Of a stretch of 64,000 bases of DNA, positions 1,636 through 61,352 are shown piece after piece (the first letter of the stretch is position 1; each line of letters begins with the position of its first letter). This DNA comes from Podarcis pityusensis. Lineage: Eukaryota. The DNA is taken from assembly GCA_964106645.2 (NCBI GenBank), contig OZ067044.1. One strand, given 5' to 3'. Both the position numbers and the translations under genes were made by a program. The notes below the pieces were generated by a model, which saw only the letters and a program-made list of their open reading frames with translations, was not told where the DNA came from and made no database searches.

Positions 1636-2009
1636 GCTACAACCAGTGTTATCACTGGGAGTGGCAAAGTACATACAGCCCTGTCTGCCAGATGAATTTG
1701 GGGGGATTCGCTTCAGCAGCCACCTCTATCTCAGCATCATTACTATTGGTTTCCAGCTAAATCAAACATTATTTTACTGAGTTAAGATATGAAACTGCTG
1801 TAAATAAATGATCCAAAGTAAGTGGCTTGCAGTCTTTCTCCTCTTGTCAGCAGAGACTCCTGTAGGTTACAATCCAGTGTAGTTTGGGGCTAGAAAGGGC
1901 AACACTGACTGGCATTAAGCTGAAGGAGAGATTTATGCAAGGCTGTGATTAACATATGTTTACACATTGCTTTGCTGAAGTTCCACAGAGAGATATTGTG
2001 ATTAAGTAG

Positions 2010-2417
2010 TGTCAGGGAACTGCCATCGGAAGGAAGGGAAGTGAAAGGGCTCACACAGGTTGGGAGAGACTCAGCAGCTGAAGAGGGAACCAGTAGGGGG
2101 AGAGGAGCTGAGCTGAGGGAAAGGGAGCTGGAGGGATGGCTCAGAGACACTTCCAGCGAAAACAGTGGGGAGGTTTCAGGACCTCCTGTAGGGACACCCA
2201 CTCCTCGCCGGAAACTGTCACGCAGAGAGTCCAGAAGACGTGTTTCCGTTAAGGAGCTTTTATGTTGGAAGCGATTCCGAAAGCAACCACTGTCGGAATC
2301 TGCCAGCGACTGACGGAGCCATGTTTAAGGGGCTCCGTTACAGACAGAGGTTTGCAAACTTGACCAAACTCTGAGGGACTAGGATTTTACACACAAGCAG
2401 CTCATCGTCCCCTCACA
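2010..2417 (+). repeat. 5' LTR
   Basis: TGTCAGGGAAC...GTCCCCTCACA (9/11 inverted termini); no difference seen by eye from 7093-7500. Confidence 0.97.
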
Positions 2418-2419
2418 GC

Positions 2420-2430
2420 ATTCCGACAGT
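2420..2430 (+). promoter_or_regulatory. Self-priming primer-binding site (Tf1 type)
   Basis: ATTCCGACAGT lies 2 nt after the LTR and is the exact reverse complement of ACTGTCGGAAT at 2289-2299; no TGG-starting tRNA PBS. Confidence 0.85.
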
Positions 2431-2462
2431 CTTCGTGAGCAGCTTGTGCAGGAGAAGGCATC

Positions 2463-3476
2463 ATGAGCAACCCAGCCGGAACCGGAGAAGCAGGAGCTGG
2501 AGCGGGTCCAAGCCTGGAAGAAAGGTACCGGGTGTTGGAGGTCCAGCTAGCGCTGCAGACGGCGAGGCTTGAGGAGAGGAGGGCTCAGGATGCAGACAAA
2601 AAGGGGAAAGACACCCAGCTCGTCAGAAAGGTACCAGGATTGGTGCAGAAGTTTGGGGGGGAGCCCAAAGACTATCATGGCTTTCGGACAGAGATGCAAT
2701 ATGCCCTCAATCTGCAGTTTGATGAATTCCCTGACGAGGAATCACGAGTGGCTTTCGTGATTGGGCATCTTGAAAAGGGGGCGAGAGACTGGGTTAGACC
2801 CCTGATGGCAGCGAATAGTGACGTCCTAAAGGACACGATGAAGTTCTTTCGCGCCATGGATCTGATGTTTTCCAGCGATATTGAACAGGGAGTGGTCCGC
2901 AGACAGTTAATGGCTTGCAAACAGGGGAGCCGATCTGTCCGTGAGTACTGGACTGAGTTCACCATGTTGATCCATAAATTGGGGTGGGATCTATCGGCGG
3001 AACCCATTCAAATGCTCTTTGAAGAAGGGCTTTCTTCGGCTGTGAAAGACGAACTTTCCCGGGCGCCCAGGGCGGAGTCTATGGACCAGCTGACCAAATC
3101 AGCGCTGACCATAGGAGCGCGCCAGGAGGCGAGAGCATTGGAGAGGCGGGAAGGGAAGGGGGAACGTTGGAAGGAGTTCCGCATTCCAGACATTCCAGAG
3201 CCAACTTTCCCGCCGGCAGAGCCGATGGAAATCGGAACAGCGCGCGCGCGCGCAGTTTCAAAGCCCAGTGAGGGGGGAAAGAAGGAGGGAAAAGGCGCCC
3301 GGAAATGCTATCTCTGCCAACAGCCAGGTCACTTTGCCAGAGTCTGCCCCCAGAGGAAGGAATGGCAAGGGATGGTAGGAGTTGTGGAGGGAAGAGAGGA
3401 AGAAATACCGAAGCAAGTAAAAGCCAACGCCTGGCTGCCACCGTCGGGGCACAGCAGCCAGGCCAAAGAGCAGTGA
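2463..3476 (+). CDS. gag: Gag polyprotein (sushi/PEG10/RTL1-like capsid plus CCHC zinc knuckle), 337 aa
   Basis: KFGGEP and KQGSRSVREY capsid motifs, EPMEIG motif, CYLCQQPGHFARVC knuckle; ATG 45 nt after the LTR. Confidence 0.95.
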   Translation: MSNPAGTGEAGAGAGPSLEERYRVLEVQLALQTARLEERRAQDADKKGKDTQLVRKVPGLVQKFGGEPKDYHGFRTEMQYALNLQFDEFPDEESRVAFVIGHLEKGARDWVRPLMAANSDVLKDTMKFFRAMDLMFSSDIEQGVVRRQLMACKQGSRSVREYWTEFTMLIHKLGWDLSAEPIQMLFEEGLSSAVKDELSRAPRAESMDQLTKSALTIGARQEARALERREGKGERWKEFRIPDIPEPTFPPAEPMEIGTARARAVSKPSEGGKKEGKGARKCYLCQQPGHFARVCPQRKEWQGMVGVVEGREEEIPKQVKANAWLPPSGHSSQAKEQ

Positions 3477-6400
3477 AAGTGCCCACGCCAGAACCTCCTA
3501 AACCCGCCCTAGTGATAGAAGTGGCGCTAGAGCTGCCAAACGGACACCCTCTAAAGATAAAGGCGCTGTTGGACTCAGGCAGCTCCTGCAATTTCATGAG
3601 CAAAGAGTTTGCAGCTGAACACCAGATACAGACGATCCCTTTAAGCAACCCCCTGCAGGTGACCACGATCGATGGCAGGGAGCTGTTGGGAGGAGAAGTC
3701 AGCTTGCAGACCGTCCCAATGATAATGAAGGTGGCAAGGCACACCGAACTGATAGCGTTTAATGTGGCCACCTTGGGAGGAGCTCCCATTATATTGGGGA
3801 TGAGCTGGCTAGCGTTACATGATCCGCTGGTGGGCTGGCATCAGAGAGTAGTTTCTTTTGGTTCAGCACATTGCTTAGAACACTGCAAAGAGGGAAAGGG
3901 TTTGGCAGGGGCCCAAGCCACCCTAGCAGGGACTGAAGTAACGGAGAACGTGAAGGTACCACGACAATACGCAGATCTCCGCGACGTCTTCAGCGAAAGG
4001 GAAGCTGACCAACTACCCCCGCATAGACCCTTTGACTGTCAAATCAATTTACTCCCTGGGGCACAGCTCCCTGTAGGCAAGCTGTACGCCATGTCAGACA
4101 GAGAGATGCAGGAGCTAAGAGAGTTCATTGACAAGAACCTGAAGAGAGGGTTCATCAGAGAGTCCAGGGCGGTGGGGGGCAGCCCAGTGTTTTTTGTGGA
4201 TAAAAAAAACACGAACAAGCCGAGGCTTGTGTGTGACTTCAGGGCCTTAAATGCAGTGTCAGAACCAGTGGCTTTCCCTATGCCCAGGATTGACGACATT
4301 TTGACAAGGGTCAGGAAGGGAAAGATTTTTACTAAACTGGACCTAAGGGGGGCGTACAACCTGATACGAATAAGGAAGGGGGATGAATGGAAAACCACCA
4401 TGTTCACCCCTTTGGGGGCATTTGAATATTTAGTTATGCCCTTCGGCCTACAAGGAGGCTCCGCGTGCTTTCAATCGTTTATGAACCACGTCCTGGGGCC
4501 TTTGCTTTACAAGAATTGTGTGGCCTTCTTAGACGACGTGTTGGTGTATTCTGAGAATGAGGAGCAGCATGTGAGAGACGTCAGAGAAGTGTTGAGCAGG
4601 CTGCAAGCCAACCAGCTGTGGGTGAAACTGGAGAAGTGTCAGTTTCATACCAAGGAGGTGGAATTCCTGGGGTATCGCCTGTCAGACAAGGGATTGGCCA
4701 TGGATCCCGGCAAGGTCCAGGCGGTGCTGGAATGGAAAACACCCAAAACAAGGAAGGATGTGCAGAGGTTCCTAGGATTTGGGAACTTCTATCGTAAGTT
4801 CATCCGAAACTTTGCCCACCTGACGGCGCCCATTACGGACTGTCTCAGCAGTAAGAAGAAGTTCGTTTGGACTGAGGAGGCGGAGCGAGCATTTGAGGAA
4901 CTAAAAAGGGCCTTCGCCTCGGAACAACAACTCCTGCATGTGGATTTACAAAAACCGATGAGAGTGGAAACTGACGCATCAGACAGAGCTATTGGGGCGG
5001 TGCTTCTGCAGCCAGGGAAGGAGGAGTCAGAGTGGAGACCGTGTGCCTTTTTTTCGCGAAAGCTGAACAAATCCGAGAGGAACTACACGGTGTATGACCG
5101 AGAACTACTAGCCATTCATGAGGCGTTCCGGAGATGGAGGCACCTGCTAATTGGCGCACAACATAAGGTGCAAGTGTGCACTGACCACAAGAACCTAGAG
5201 TATTGGAGGACGGCACGAGTGCTCAACCAACGGCAAGTGAGATGGGCCCAGGAGTTCTCCAAATTTAACTTTGAGATTTGTTACGTGCCAGGCCCAGAGA
5301 ACATTAGGGCGGACGCTCTCTCACGCAAACCTGAATATTTGGAGGGGGAGGGAGCACCCGAAGAGAGACATGTCATTCCAGAGGACCGCTGGGTGTGTGG
5401 GGCGGCATTGGTGGGACAAAGAGAACTGGTAGAGGAAACAGAGAATGATGAATACGCCCAGAATAAGCTCAGAGGTCTTAGGGGTGAGGGAGAGGAACCA
5501 GGGGGTTTCGAGGAAAGAAATGGAGCTTTGTATTACAAAGGGGCACTGTATATCCCTGAAGGAGACTTAAGGGGGAGGGTACTCAAGCAGTTGCACGACA
5601 GCCCCACGGCGGGGCATTTTGGACAACACAAAACCATGTGGTTGGTCACCAGGGAATTTTGGTGGCCTAAGGTGAGGGAAGATGTACGGGAGTATGTAAG
5701 AGGGTGTGAGCAATGCCAGCGAGCCAAAGGGGAGAGGCGGGCACCGGCGGGGCTATTAGAACCCTTACCAACCCCAGAACGACCTTGGGAGGCAGTGTCG
5801 ATAGATTTTATGACTGATCTGCCGAAGTCCAAGGGGAAAACAGCCATCATGGTGGTGGTAGACCTACTAACAAAGATGTGCCACTTTGTAGCCTGCTCGC
5901 ATGCAGTCACGGCGGAAGAGACAGCGAAGTTATTTGTAGAACACATTTTTAGGTTGCACGAGGTGCCATTGAGGGTGGTCTCAGACCGAGGAAAACAATT
6001 TACTTCCAGGTTCTGGAGGAAGCTCATGAGCTTACTGCAGGTGGAGGTCAACTTTTCGACTGCCCGGCACCCTGAAACCAACGGGCAGGCGGAAAGAGCA
6101 AACGGGGTCCTCCAGCAATACCTGAGGTGTTATGTCAATGACAGAGAGAATGACTGGGTAGAAAAGTTGGCGCTGGCGGAATTTGCCTACAACAATGCCG
6201 AGAATGTGTCCACAGGGATGAGCCCCTTCTTGGCTAATTATGGGTGTCATCCCAGGGCTTTCCCAGGGGGAGAAGGGGAGAGATGGGGTGTCCCGGCAGC
6301 CGAGCATTTTGTAGAAGAAATGGAAGCAATCCATCGTCAGCTCCAACTCAACTTAGAAAGGGCGAAGGAAGAATACAAGAGGCAGGCAGACAAGAACCGA

Positions 6401-7396
6401 AGGGAAGGTGAAACCATAAGGGTGGGAGATAGGGTGTGGCTGTCAACCCAAGGGTTGCCGTTTAAAGGAGGTTGTAAGAAATTAAGACCCAGGAGATTGG
6501 GTCCCTTTGAGGTCATTCAACAGGTCAACCCAGTGGCTTTCAGGCTCCGGTTACCCAACCACATGAAACTGCACCCAGTATTTCACAGGTCGTTACTGTC
6601 ACCGTATGAGGGGGGACGAGAAGGGATGGCCACTCGGGGACCGGTCATAGAAGAAAGGGAATGCAGCAGCCATGTGGCAGAAATCCTCGACGCCAGATGG
6701 AAGGGGGATCAGGTGGAGTATTTGGTAGCGTGGGAAGGAGAACCGGAGTCAGAAAACACTTGGGTAATGGCAGAAGATATCAATGACGAGGTATTGATAG
6801 AAACGTTCCATCAAAGGTTCCCAAGGAAACCTCAGCCTGTGGAGAGGTTCCGGAGGGAATACTTTGGGACCACCGATGAGGAGGAGGAGTTGGAAGGATT
6901 CTCGGAATCGGAAGGGGAAGGGGAGATGGACTCTGAGGAGGAGGAGTACTTCGAGACCAGGAACCGCAACAGGTGGAGAGAAGTGTTCGGGACATCGGAA
7001 GATGAAGGAAGTTCATTCCGGGGTTTTGCCTCCTCACCGCCCGTAGAGGAGGGGGCGAGAGGGGATGAAGGGGGCCCTGGAGGGGAGGTGGATGTCAGGG
7101 AACTGCCATCGGAAGGAAGGGAAGTGAAAGGGCTCACACAGGTTGGGAGAGACTCAGCAGCTGAAGAGGGAACCAGTAGGGGGAGAGGAGCTGAGCTGAG
7201 GGAAAGGGAGCTGGAGGGATGGCTCAGAGACACTTCCAGCGAAAACAGTGGGGAGGTTTCAGGACCTCCTGTAGGGACACCCACTCCTCGCCGGAAACTG
7301 TCACGCAGAGAGTCCAGAAGACGTGTTTCCGTTAAGGAGCTTTTATGTTGGAAGCGATTCCGAAAGCAACCACTGTCGGAATCTGCCAGCGACTGA
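3305..7396 (+). CDS. pol: Pol: aspartic protease, RT, RNase H, integrase, chromodomain and acidic/basic tail; probably made as Gag-Pol by -1 frameshift near 3416-3422
   Basis: LLDSGS (D at 3572), KLDLRGAY/MPFGL/FLDD (4526-4537), ETDAS, HHCC finger, IDF/SDRG/NGQAER (DDE), GPF, YLVAWEG..NTW; open to TGA 7394-7396; -1 frame relative to gag. Confidence 0.97.
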   Translation: MLSLPTARSLCQSLPPEEGMARDGRSCGGKRGRNTEASKSQRLAATVGAQQPGQRAVKVPTPEPPKPALVIEVALELPNGHPLKIKALLDSGSSCNFMSKEFAAEHQIQTIPLSNPLQVTTIDGRELLGGEVSLQTVPMIMKVARHTELIAFNVATLGGAPIILGMSWLALHDPLVGWHQRVVSFGSAHCLEHCKEGKGLAGAQATLAGTEVTENVKVPRQYADLRDVFSEREADQLPPHRPFDCQINLLPGAQLPVGKLYAMSDREMQELREFIDKNLKRGFIRESRAVGGSPVFFVDKKNTNKPRLVCDFRALNAVSEPVAFPMPRIDDILTRVRKGKIFTKLDLRGAYNLIRIRKGDEWKTTMFTPLGAFEYLVMPFGLQGGSACFQSFMNHVLGPLLYKNCVAFLDDVLVYSENEEQHVRDVREVLSRLQANQLWVKLEKCQFHTKEVEFLGYRLSDKGLAMDPGKVQAVLEWKTPKTRKDVQRFLGFGNFYRKFIRNFAHLTAPITDCLSSKKKFVWTEEAERAFEELKRAFASEQQLLHVDLQKPMRVETDASDRAIGAVLLQPGKEESEWRPCAFFSRKLNKSERNYTVYDRELLAIHEAFRRWRHLLIGAQHKVQVCTDHKNLEYWRTARVLNQRQVRWAQEFSKFNFEICYVPGPENIRADALSRKPEYLEGEGAPEERHVIPEDRWVCGAALVGQRELVEETENDEYAQNKLRGLRGEGEEPGGFEERNGALYYKGALYIPEGDLRGRVLKQLHDSPTAGHFGQHKTMWLVTREFWWPKVREDVREYVRGCEQCQRAKGERRAPAGLLEPLPTPERPWEAVSIDFMTDLPKSKGKTAIMVVVDLLTKMCHFVACSHAVTAEETAKLFVEHIFRLHEVPLRVVSDRGKQFTSRFWRKLMSLLQVEVNFSTARHPETNGQAERANGVLQQYLRCYVNDRENDWVEKLALAEFAYNNAENVSTGMSPFLANYGCHPRAFPGGEGERWGVPAAEHFVEEMEAIHRQLQLNLERAKEEYKRQADKNRREGETIRVGDRVWLSTQGLPFKGGCKKLRPRRLGPFEVIQQVNPVAFRLRLPNHMKLHPVFHRSLLSPYEGGREGMATRGPVIEERECSSHVAEILDARWKGDQVEYLVAWEGEPESENTWVMAEDINDEVLIETFHQRFPRKPQPVERFRREYFGTTDEEEELEGFSESEGEGEMDSEEEEYFETRNRNRWREVFGTSEDEGSSFRGFASSPPVEEGARGDEGGPGGEVDVRELPSEGREVKGLTQVGRDSAAEEGTSRGRGAELRERELEGWLRDTSSENSGEVSGPPVGTPTPRRKLSRRESRRRVSVKELLCWKRFRKQPLSESASD
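3416..3484 (+). promoter_or_regulatory. Putative -1 ribosomal frameshift signal (A_GUA_AAA plus H-type pseudoknot)
   Basis: Stem 1 GCCTGGCTGC 3429-3438 pairs with GCAGCCAGGC 3454-3463; loop GGGCAC 3447-3452 pairs with GTGCCC 3479-3484; 6-nt spacer after the heptamer. Confidence 0.7.
7079..7092 (+). promoter_or_regulatory. Polypurine tract
   Basis: GGAGGGGAGGTGGA directly before the TG of the 3' LTR. Confidence 0.8.
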
Positions 7397-7500
7397 CGGA
7401 GCCATGTTTAAGGGGCTCCGTTACAGACAGAGGTTTGCAAACTTGACCAAACTCTGAGGGACTAGGATTTTACACACAAGCAGCTCATCGTCCCCTCACA
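7093..7500 (+). repeat. 3' LTR (first 304 nt are in the pol reading frame)
   Basis: Direct repeat of 2010-2417, followed by TSD AGTAG. Confidence 0.97.
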
Positions 7501-8805
7501 AGTAGCAAGTGCAATTAATCAACCAGAATGGTGGAAGCATAGAAGATGACAGACTAATACAAGCAACCAAATCAACCATGAGATGATGTTAGAAATTAGC
7601 ATATACCACAATCTTTCATATTTATTTAGTATTTTTTAGCGGTTCACCTCTGAGGCAGAGGGAAATGAGGGAACTTCTAGAAAGGTGGTGGGCAAGTTGC
7701 CTATCAGCTATTTTCTTTCTATTCAGGAGCCCTTCATAAGCATTCAAATGTATTTTCAGAAGATAGCTTTGCATCAAGTGGTATACCATATACCACAGGA
7801 TTTGATGGTTGGCATGCAATGATATTGAAAAATATCTGTCAGTTGACATATAATAGCTGTCTTGTTGTTTTTTAAACTTATTGCAGGGGTAATCAATAGG
7901 GTGCTCTCCGGATGTTGTTTGACTACAATTTCCATCATTCTGCACCATTGGCTATGTGGGCTGAGGATGATAAGAGTTGGAATCCAACAATATCTGGGTC
8001 TGATACTTCTCGCATATAACTGATAAGATGCAATGCAGATACACAATAAGGTTTGATCCAGTGAAGCATGAGCACAGTGTCCACATGCAAAGAATCCTAC
8101 TGAGCTCAATAGAGTCCTTTCCCACTTCACATCAGTCTAACTGCACTGTTCTCACACTTGCTCAGGATATGTGTATCTACATAGGTATCAGCAATCCCAT
8201 GGTCTAGACATCCTGGTTCATTTAGGTCTTCCCTACTGTGTGTGTAGCTCTAATCTTTCTCTGTAACGCTAATCAATCATAGCTGTTACTTCACCCATTG
8301 GCTAAAAACACTGAAAGGGAGTTGCCCGTACTGTGTTTCCTGGTTTTAATTACCACATTATTTCCTTGTAACAGAATATTATCCAGCAACCTCTTCAGGT
8401 GGGCCAACTGAGGGACCATTCATAATGTCAGTAACAAAACCATAGATATTTCTGTATCCCAGAAATCCCACATGAGAGTTCTGTATCCCATTTACACTCA
8501 TTATTTCCCACGCTAAAAAGTAAAGGTTGCTTATCTCTCTTTTTTTTGCTTTTGGAATACAATAGGCAAAAATACCTGTTTGCAATAAAAATGGCACTAT
8601 ACATGCCATTGTTTTGTACAGACACAGCTCTACATTGGTACCAAATGCAATTTAGTAATAGAAAATTAAAATGTTCAGTCTCTTGAGCAGTGAAACCACA
8701 AACTGGTTTATTGTTGCAGAAATATTTTTTTTAGAATGTGGGGAACAGCCCTTCCCATTCACATTCCTCCTGCTAAGGTTTGTTAAACACCCATGGCTGG
8801 ATTAA

Positions 8806-46544: not shown

Positions 46545-46692
46545 CCTTGTTGACTCAAACCATTGATCTGTCTAGGCAAGCATTTCTAAGCCAGCTACCT
46601 GAGATTGTTTAATTGGAGAGATTCCAGGGATTGAACTTGAGACCTTCTGAATACAAAGCATATGCTCTACCACTGAGCTACAGTCTTTCTCC
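46545..46692 (-). mobile_element. tRNA-derived SINE (Squam3-like), partial
   Basis: Minus-strand head ctgtagctcagtggtagagcatatgctttg..aaggtctcaagttcaatccc. Confidence 0.6.
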
Positions 46693-60545: not shown

Positions 60546-61352
60546 TGGGCCAAAGATTTTGGATATAATATACAGATGGAGGATTAGGAGAAATTATGGA
60601 AAGAAGGTTTAAGATTCACTGCATGTATAACAATTAAAGAAAATGTGATGAAAATGATGTATCGATGGTATGTAACACCAGTGAAGTTAGCAAGGATGTA
60701 CAAGGGATGTAATAAATGTTGGAAATGTAAAGAAAAAGAAGGTACATTTTATCATATGTGGTGGGAGTGTAAGAAAGTTGGAAGCTTTTGGGAAATGATA
60801 TATAATGAATTGAAGAAAATGTTTAAATATACATTTGTCAAGAAACCAGAAGCGTTTTTACTTGGTATTACAGGGAATGAGATAAATAAGAAAGAAAGGA
60901 AGTTATTTTTATATGCAGTGACTGCAGCAAGAATATTGATGGCCCAGAAATGGAAGCAAGAGGAGCTACCTATGTTAGAAGAATGGAGAATGAAGATGAT
61001 GGACTATGCAGAACTTGATAGATTGAAGGGAAGGATCTGAAATCGATGAGATCAGAGATTCACAGAAAGGTTTATAGAATATATGCATAAATTAAGTGAT
61101 AACCAAATAACGTTTGTAAGCTTTAATGAAGCTCTATGAGAAGAAACGTTAGTAAGTGAGCAAAAATAAGAACTAATTTATAAAAACAATGGAAGTAAGA
61201 TTTTAGAAATGTGTAAGAAATTAAGAAGGGAAGGAGTATCAGTCAAGTTGAGAGAAGTCAAAAAGAGAATAGAGATAAAAAAAAGATGTATGAACTGTAT
61301 AAATTTTGTATTGGAAAAATTGAATAAAAATATTATATATATATAAAAAAAA
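60546..61352 (+). mobile_element. L1/Tx1-like LINE, 5'-truncated (ORF2 C-terminus, 3' UTR, A tail)
   Basis: YRWYVTP..CWKCKEKEGTFYHMWWEC CCHC motif; AATAAA and A-rich tail; perfect 18-bp TSD TAGAATTAACTTTGAGTC (60528-60545, 61353-61370). Confidence 0.92.

Follow-up and report, generated by a model that had tools for sequence, protein, structure and literature searches.

How does a lizard retrotransposon prime the synthesis of its own DNA? We analyzed a window of 64,000 nt from Podarcis pityusensis (contig OZ067044.1 of assembly GCA_964106645.2), in which an intact Ty3/gypsy chromovirus occupies positions 2010 to 7500 and is bounded by two 408-nt long terminal repeats (LTRs) with 100% identity (Table 1). 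A preliminary description of this DNA had pointed out that ACTGTCGGAAT (2289 to 2299), within the 5' LTR, is the exact reverse complement of ATTCCGACAGT (2420 to 2430), which lies 2 nt past the end of that LTR at 2417, and our analysis confirmed this. The description went on to propose that the RNA starts at A2289 and that its first 11 nt, once cut off, serve as the minus-strand primer, as in Tf1 of Schizosaccharomyces pombe. The position of the complement, its covariation among relatives, and the pattern of copying errors around it all point to the capped 5' end of the element's RNA as the primer, a reading to which we assign a probability of roughly 0.88. Our confidence figures for this reading and for the rival readings weighed below overlap.

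Element structure and family

The description of the element as intact was borne out by its identical LTRs, its target-site duplication (TSD), and the presence of gag together with a full set of pol domains. The pol domain order (PR-RT-RH-IN), the TG...CA ends of the LTRs, and the TSD are all features of a Ty3/gypsy chromovirus. The gag and pol frames overlap with a -1 shift, and frameshifting is predicted from the sequence, with slippery candidates at 3275 and 3287. Among solved structures, Gag best matched the PEG10 capsid domain (7lga; E value, 3e-5) and Pol best matched Ty3-G Gag-Pol (E value, 2e-138). The nearest labelled reverse transcriptase (RT) relatives came from Podarcis muralis (95 to 96%), Anolis (52 to 54%), and fish, amphibians, and fungi (43 to 50%). 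Going by the labels of these relatives, the element is a vertebrate chromovirus.

TABLE 1 Features of the element and its borders in the window
Feature	Position	Strand	Remarks
5' target-site duplication AGTAG	2005..2009	.	Same letters at 7501-7505
5' LTR, 408 nt, TG...CA	2010..2417	+	100% identity to 3' LTR; without TATA string or AATAAA-type hexamer
TTTTAT, weak TATA-like element, -31 to -26 of predicted start	2258..2263	+	3' LTR copy is Pol-coding
Predicted self-primer, +1 to +11	2289..2299	+	Predicted capped start A2289; predicted cut 2299/2300
U5 arm, predicted pairing with leader 2434-2448	2392..2407	+	One flanking duplex of a Tf1-type pretzel; P 0.17
Spacer GC, 2 nt	2418..2419	+	G predicted paired with C2300, C bulged
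Primer-binding site (PBS)	2420..2430	+	Exact complement of 2289-2299
C directly 3' of PBS	2431..2431	+	Putative copy of primer m7G cap; 1,321/1,323 junctions
Hypervariable bases 3' of PBS	2432..2434	+	Putative untemplated additions, end of plus strong-stop DNA
gag ORF, 337 aa	2463..3476	+	Retrotrans_gag, zf-CCHC; weak match to PEG10 capsid
pol ORF, 1374 codons stop to stop, -1 frame to gag	3272..7396	+	PR, RT, RNase H, integrase, SH3_Tf2-1, chromodomain
Chromodomain in pol	about 6674-6817	+	PF00385, E 7e-10, aa 1135-1182, integrase C-terminus
Polypurine tract	7079..7092	+	Read from sequence
3' LTR	7093..7500	+	Second 11-mer copy at 7372-7382, inside Pol codons
3' target-site duplication AGTAG	7501..7505	.	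Matches 2005-2009

Because pol extends 304 nt into the 3' LTR, U3, the TTTTAT string, and the 11-mer are also coding there. We compared the reach of Pol into the 3' LTR in the window (7093 to 7396) and at five other loci (L099, L101, L102, L062, and L080). In families A and B, the Pol stop lies 25 nt after the start of the primer copy, and in family D it lies 22 nt after; in family I, the stop comes 36 nt before that start. The Pol tail inside the 3' LTR is rich in arginine, and the tail of family I has the letters RRSARL, which we presume to resemble the nucleosome-binding core of HMGN.

Pattern counts over the searched genome (1.5 Gb) yielded 1,323 exact LTR-PBS junctions and 2,188 exact LTR primer sites for the window's family, which is very young, having recently been inserted and amplified. 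The first 30 copies were picked by junction identity and are uninformative on variation, and an independent set was drawn on gag. A search with Gag found 5 relatives. Three LTRs had two PBS junctions in a row, the arrangement of tandem copies that share an LTR; the tandem loci include G000:C1:33936949-33946860 and C1:45270387-45281419, and one such locus (L025) contains Ns and may reflect assembly effects. Such tandem copies are described for Tf1 (PMC11042837). On one 38-Mb contig (C19), older, broken copies of several families were strongly overrepresented; our guess is that this contig could be the W chromosome.

Complementarity and folding of the RNA leader

No LTR segment has a longer complement to the post-LTR sequence than the 11-mer. 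When the LTR was shuffled with its dinucleotides preserved, 14 of 20,000 shuffles (P = 0.0007) yielded an 11-mer complement starting 0 to 5 nt from the LTR end. The preliminary description stated that pairing stops at both ends of the 11-mer, which is correct for contiguous pairing, but the predicted fold adds three pairs, 2300-2302 with 2416-2418, beyond a single bulged base at 2419. The base at +12 is C in 10 of the 11 primer types that we distinguish below (T in the other), and the G that it faces after the LTR is invariant in 11 of 11.

When the RNA from 2289 to 2435 was folded, the 11-nt helix formed with pair probabilities of 0.75 to 1.0. The helix was mostly lost when 19 to 29 extra upstream bases and a longer leader were included, and thus the position of the RNA start matters for the fold. 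For the three-duplex structure known as the pretzel, the downstream duplex reached a P of ≤0.05 in 4 of 11 types and the upstream duplex did so in 2 of 11. Neither flanking duplex was significant in the window's family (downstream, P = 0.17; upstream, P = 0.50). The U5-leader arm occupies the same position in A, B, and B2, with letters that differ among them.

Because the LTR contains no TATA string, no AATAAA, and none of 13 other TATA- or poly(A)-like strings tested, neither end of the RNA can be read from motifs. The AT-rich TTTTAT to which attention had been drawn upstream of the predicted start does occur at 2258 to 2263, but it does not match the TATA consensus and is also read as Leu-Leu-Cys of Pol in the 3' LTR. 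As a coding string that is absent in some families, it is a weak argument for the start site, and its reading as a TATA box was dropped as a main one. A T/A-rich core near -30 was found in 6 of the 11 types, clearly so in family I, and was missing in 5. Initiators have a pyrimidine-purine step; the duplex starts at such a step in 9 of 11 types and starts 2 and 1 nt upstream of one in types G and H, respectively.

Covariation of primer and PBS among relatives

We retrieved 60 further Gypsy loci from this genome and examined these and the window, 61 stretches in all, for LTRs. One stretch was without an RT, 20 were without an LTR pair, and 10 were left out due to unresolved ends or unmatched TSDs (L073, L075, L082, L098, L103, L104, L109, L112, L114, and L120). 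The 30 elements with resolved ends and matched TSDs entered the pairing analysis. In all 30, a site in the 5' LTR pairs with the bases that start 2 nt past the LTR, with a score of 10 to 11 of 11: 19 elements pair at 11/11, six have perfect 10-nt duplexes, and five have one mismatch or two G-U pairs. Second-best LTR sites scored no higher than 9.5, and at control offsets of 15 to 399, a complement of at least 10 nt was present at 0 to 0.8% of positions.

The preliminary description had named covariation of the two 11-mers among relatives as a check, and we found it: the letters differ and the pairing is kept in 11 primer types, which span RT identities of 54 to 87% and pair across types at only 1 to 10 of 11. 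The sister type nearest to that of the window is two compensated changes away. Types G, H, and I have duplexes of 13, 10, and 10 nt, respectively, not 11. The types are related on a quick tree and therefore do not represent 11 independent draws. Covariation is also visible within family D, in which PBS base 5 was changed in 7 of 22 copies and the matching LTR change was present in 7 of 7, one of them carrying a second compensated change. In the set used for this junction comparison, 10 loci had no junction alignment (1 in family C and 9 in family B), and six were read separately. In contigs of four other runs, neither 11-mer differed among the matches listed, and positions 2434 to 2444 were variable; this is a sign of conservation, not of covariation.

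At three loci, L115 (the same as L223), L107, and L245, the LTR primer is one base off the PBS, and the PBS keeps the sister type. In L115 and L107, the primer change is present in both LTRs. These loci are possible intermediates of primer-PBS turnover.

The same data bear on the idea that a host tRNA, a tRNA half, or another host RNA is the primer and that the LTR complement serves solely as a structural stem. Retroviral leaders do have U5-leader stems, and our tRNA set was partial, consisting of 27 distinct sequences with 11 anticodon types, drawn from 30 loci among 54 matches and from the one call made in the window. As previously noted, however, a tRNA-type PBS is not present, as the first 30 nt past the LTR lack a TGG. 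Across the 31 calls of this partial set, pairing of the PBS with any tRNA 3' end leaves 6 or more mismatches in 11 nt, and its best tRNA complement is 5 nt and internal. Moreover, thirteen distinct PBS sequences all match the LTR of their own element, and in two copies the PBS continues into the complement of upstream LTR bases; no host RNA could keep pace with such changes of letters in primer and PBS, and the covariation thus largely refutes a host primer. In the one case of a TGG-type PBS that we could compare, an element nested in L071, the LTR held no complement as long as 7 nt. We rejected tRNA priming on two grounds, the missing 3'-end match in the partial set and the joint variation of PBS and LTR, and we hold a host RNA of any kind to be the least probable of the sources considered here.

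The nested element of L071 (4092 to 8155 on the minus strand of that locus) belongs to another type of LTR element with 477-nt LTRs and lies within the RT of a copy of family B. In the window, ARAGORN called a tRNA-Thr(TGT) at 46615 to 46688 on the minus strand; the called sequence appears degenerate and is possibly a SINE of tRNA origin.

Variation behind the PBS

We next consider the errors that copying has left at the two ends of the primer. Under the Tf1 model, RT would finish a strand, and could err, at two points: at +12, where minus strong-stop DNA would end and an error would alter +11 of both new LTRs, and at the end of plus strong-stop DNA, once the primer has been copied, where an error would alter the bases immediately behind the PBS. 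Footprints were obtained as whole-genome pattern counts for the window's family, and the background was estimated from 78 loci and 754 sites. This background amounts to about 1 to 2 rare variants per 1,321 copies and to 2.5 to 4.5 per 2,845 LTRs.

Base 12, counted from the start of the PBS (position 2431), was C in 1,321 of 1,323 junctions, and the bases on either side of it were often changed. Base 11 (position 2430) was changed in 28 of 1,321 copies (25 T>A, 3 T>C, and no T>G), on several backgrounds and with the LTR primer intact in 28 of 28. Base 13 was changed in 19 copies (13 to A and 6 to C). For comparison, base 10 had no change and base 1 had a single one. This combination of hot spots at bases 11 and 13 with a fixed base 12 is what we would expect if the RT copied the primer and its cap. 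The changes at base 11 could be due to an early stop followed by an untemplated A or to misreading of a modified A next to the cap.

The base at LTR -1 is C, and a primer extending further upstream would therefore give G at base 12. The two exceptions at base 12 have such extensions: L251 reads G and then C, and L252 reads GGTT, which are the complements of LTR -1 and of LTR -1 to -4, respectively. Both look like copies from RNAs that would have started slightly upstream of the usual position. Since their extensions are LTR complement, the PBS side appears to be written from LTR sequence; rewriting of the PBS from a changed primer is suggested by these two upstream-extension copies and by one base-1 copy. 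Together, the fixed C, the hot spots at bases 11 and 13, and the two upstream-extended copies lend indirect support to the predicted start at A2289.

Other families have a similar pattern. In families C and D, base 12 was C in 23 of 23 and 22 of 22 copies, and the 5-column windows over PBS+11 to +15 held the most haplotypes in 3 kb (12 and 10, versus means of 1.9 and 1.2). Family I had little variation after the PBS (1/24). Across all primer types, C follows the duplex in 11 of 11, whether the -1 base is C or T.

A primer taken from the 3' copy of the 11-mer (7372 to 7382), at the far end of the RNA, with the start site elsewhere, would also pair with the PBS. The 11-mer occurs twice in the RNA, and the LTR is without a clear TATA or poly(A) signal. 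An uncapped fragment, however, could run upstream and would then leave G at base 12, in conflict with the nearly invariant C of the window's family and with the C that follows the duplex in every type irrespective of the -1 base. Elements in which both LTRs are changed at +11 also keep the old PBS (9 of 9; see below). We thus regard a 3' origin of the primer as highly improbable.

A more serious competitor accepts self-priming and holds that the C after the PBS is an inherited, selected base rather than a copy of the cap, with the hot spots being old subfamily differences. In the window's family, bases 14 and 15 do fall into few common haplotypes and are largely inherited (in a hand count of the first 100 listed, 64 CTTC, 17 CTCC, 10 CTTT, 7 CTCT, and 2 CACC), and untemplated additions need no cap. 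On the other hand, the variants at bases 11 and 13 occur on several backgrounds, and the bases that flank base 12 are hot spots while base 12 itself is fixed. Further, the C of L251 comes after an extra templated G and so has moved with the apparent start. On balance, we consider an inherited, selected C doubtful and prefer a C that would have been copied from the cap.

Variation at the predicted cut

The opposite end of the primer also carries a footprint. LTR position +11 was changed in 34 LTRs, corresponding to 18 elements, of which 16 were changed in both LTRs and 2 were singles; the alleles were A in 12 elements, G in 4, and C in 2. At the neighbors, no change was found at +10, +12, or -1, and one was found at +1. 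A Poisson test of 18 events against 4.5 gave a P value of 1e-6. At least 6 combinations of allele and background occurred among the 11 elements with a +11 variant that were seen, and the PBS was unchanged in 9 of 9 copies with such a variant whose 5' LTR was read.

Raw counts of LTR variants have to be read with caution. Across the 24-mer that surrounds the primer, 657 LTR matches deviate at a single base, and 35 of these were assigned by direct counts. Most of the other one-base variants appear to be inherited subfamily alleles (position 2304, for instance, differs in 11 of 78 loci), and the one-mismatch count is too mixed with such alleles for use as a background. Position +11 stands out because of its three alleles, mixed backgrounds, and empty neighbors, not because of its raw count. 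The paired +11 variants could in part descend from a few source copies that were mutated in the 3' LTR only.

A change at +11 in both LTRs of a new copy is expected under self-priming, because minus strong-stop DNA would end at the 2299/2300 cut. The cut after 11 nt that had been proposed for this element is thus supported indirectly by a hot spot at +11 with no change at +10 or +12, as counted in genomic copies.

Proposed priming cycle

These observations can be arranged into a cycle of five steps. In the first, a capped RNA would start at A2289, as the footprints suggest. In the second, its bases +1 to +11 would pair with 2420 to 2430, for which both the complement and its covariation were observed. 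In the third, the RNA would be cut between 2299 and 2300, at the position indicated by the footprints; by analogy with Tf1, the cutter is presumed to be RNase H, a domain of which is present in pol. In the fourth, RT would extend the 11-mer into minus strong-stop DNA of about 120 nt (from 2419 back to 2300), would sometimes add a wrong untemplated base at the 2300 end, and would then jump to the 3' repeat, which would supply +1 to +11 and U3 to both new LTRs. In the fifth, plus strong-stop synthesis would copy the retained primer, a C opposite the cap, and a few untemplated bases, and the PBS may thereby be rewritten from the primer in each cycle.

The second step would take a different form if element RNA primes in trans, either from a second packaged RNA or from a short capped transcript of another LTR; the remaining steps would be unaffected. 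Thousands of LTRs share the 11-mer (2,188 of them exactly), and one copy (L301) has a PBS base 1 that matches the most frequent LTR +11 variant despite an unchanged 5' LTR of its own, which fits two templates. Against this, the hot spot at LTR +11 indicates that the template RNA itself ends at +12, the distance from primer to PBS stays at 127 to 149 nt in 10 of 11 types, and the fold of 2289 to 2435 described above is predicted in cis. For these reasons we find priming in trans unlikely; the primer would more probably be the 5' end of the same RNA.

A wider reading of these data strikes us as fairly probable. According to it, a vertebrate sushi-type RT copies its primer and the m7G cap in every cycle, so that the fixed C would be a genomic copy of the cap; primer and PBS would drift jointly without constraint from the host, and copying errors would map both the start and the cut to the base. 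Vertebrate self-priming would then have its first in vivo record in these copies, which come from a lineage whose promoter, start, and primer lie inside the Pol frame.

Comparison with known systems

In Tf1, RNase H cuts the RNA between bases 11 and 12 (PMC7175516), about half of the cDNA retains a copy of the PBS at its 3' end, and the RT adds untemplated bases (PMC11042837). The Tf1/sushi group is defined by self-priming and includes vertebrate elements (10.1101/2022.12.06.519325, PMC6317226, PMC4600332, PMC7175516, PMC5341516), self-priming and the pretzel are predicted for vertebrate chromoviruses (10.1101/2022.12.06.519325, PMC6317226), and full-length chromoviruses are reported in reptiles (PMC3670739). 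The lizard element shares with Tf1 and Tf2 of Schizosaccharomyces pombe, and with Tj1 and Tosmo1-3, the build of a Ty3/gypsy chromovirus and an 11-nt complement between LTR and PBS. With sushi-ichi, Amn-ichi/ni/san, and the GyDB V-clade, compared by description and by the labels of relatives, it shares membership among vertebrate chromoviruses with predicted self-priming. It agrees with the Tf1/sushi group in PBS, LTR complement, and footprints, and with the members of that group outside fission yeast in frame layout, which suggests that it works like Tf1.

There are also differences. The fission-yeast elements are described as without CCHC and with one open reading frame or an in-frame stop (10.1101/2022.12.06.519325); as far as these descriptions go, the lizard element differs from Tf1/Tf2, Tj1, and Tosmo1-3 in that its gag has a CCHC knuckle and its pol lies in the -1 frame. 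Unlike in Tf1, the lizard pol crosses U3 and the primer copy, the pretzel is found only in part, and the mechanism is deduced entirely from genomic copies. A Sushi LTR model trained on fish has a clear AATAAA and a T-rich U3 (PMC3601003), whereas the lizard LTR is without AATAAA and its U3 is purine rich and coding.

RTs of the MMLV type are reported to add an extra C opposite m7G, most often as +CAA (PMC6885630). In the lizard family the likeness to this signature, as there described, lies in the C at base 12 and in A being the commonest change at base 11 (25/28) and base 13 (13/19), whereas here the signature is fixed in genomic copies and lies beside the PBS.

In tRNA-primed elements, the cap signature is expected at the U3/R border; in the window's family, this border had 0 to 1 variants.

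Self-priming has been demonstrated in Tf1 of fission yeast; for vertebrate sushi elements, it was reportedly inferred from sequence by Butler et al. in 2001. Within the scope of our literature search, we found neither a test of self-priming in vertebrates nor a study that drew on copy footprints. The primary literature on Tf1 and sushi elements may already contain a cap-derived C on Tf1 cDNA or a member of the group from reptiles. The mechanism itself is not new; the footprints at both ends of the primer are new here.

More than 1,300 near-identical copies record RT errors at both ends of the primer, and this record appears to support the Tf1 model, step by step, for the germ line of an amniote. 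The fixed C, the hot spots that flank it, and the +11 changes in both LTRs make up a test of self-priming that can be applied to the sequences of any suspected family and can separate a capped primer of 5' origin from one of another source. The source of the PEG10/RTL genes is a relative of this clade. The lizard Gag resembles the domesticated, sushi-derived PEG10/SIRH genes of mammals in its match to the PEG10 capsid domain; unlike them, they being without LTRs, the lizard family is autonomous and recently amplified.

Other features of the window

Upstream of the element, a 221-nt TG...CA segment (1415 to 1635) contains TATATAA and AATAAA and has flanks that match at 4 of 5 positions; it is likely a solo LTR of another family. 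Near the far end of the window, an open frame of 150 aa (60588 to 61040) has a C-x2-C...H-x4-C pattern, which we take to resemble the C-terminus of LINE ORF2.
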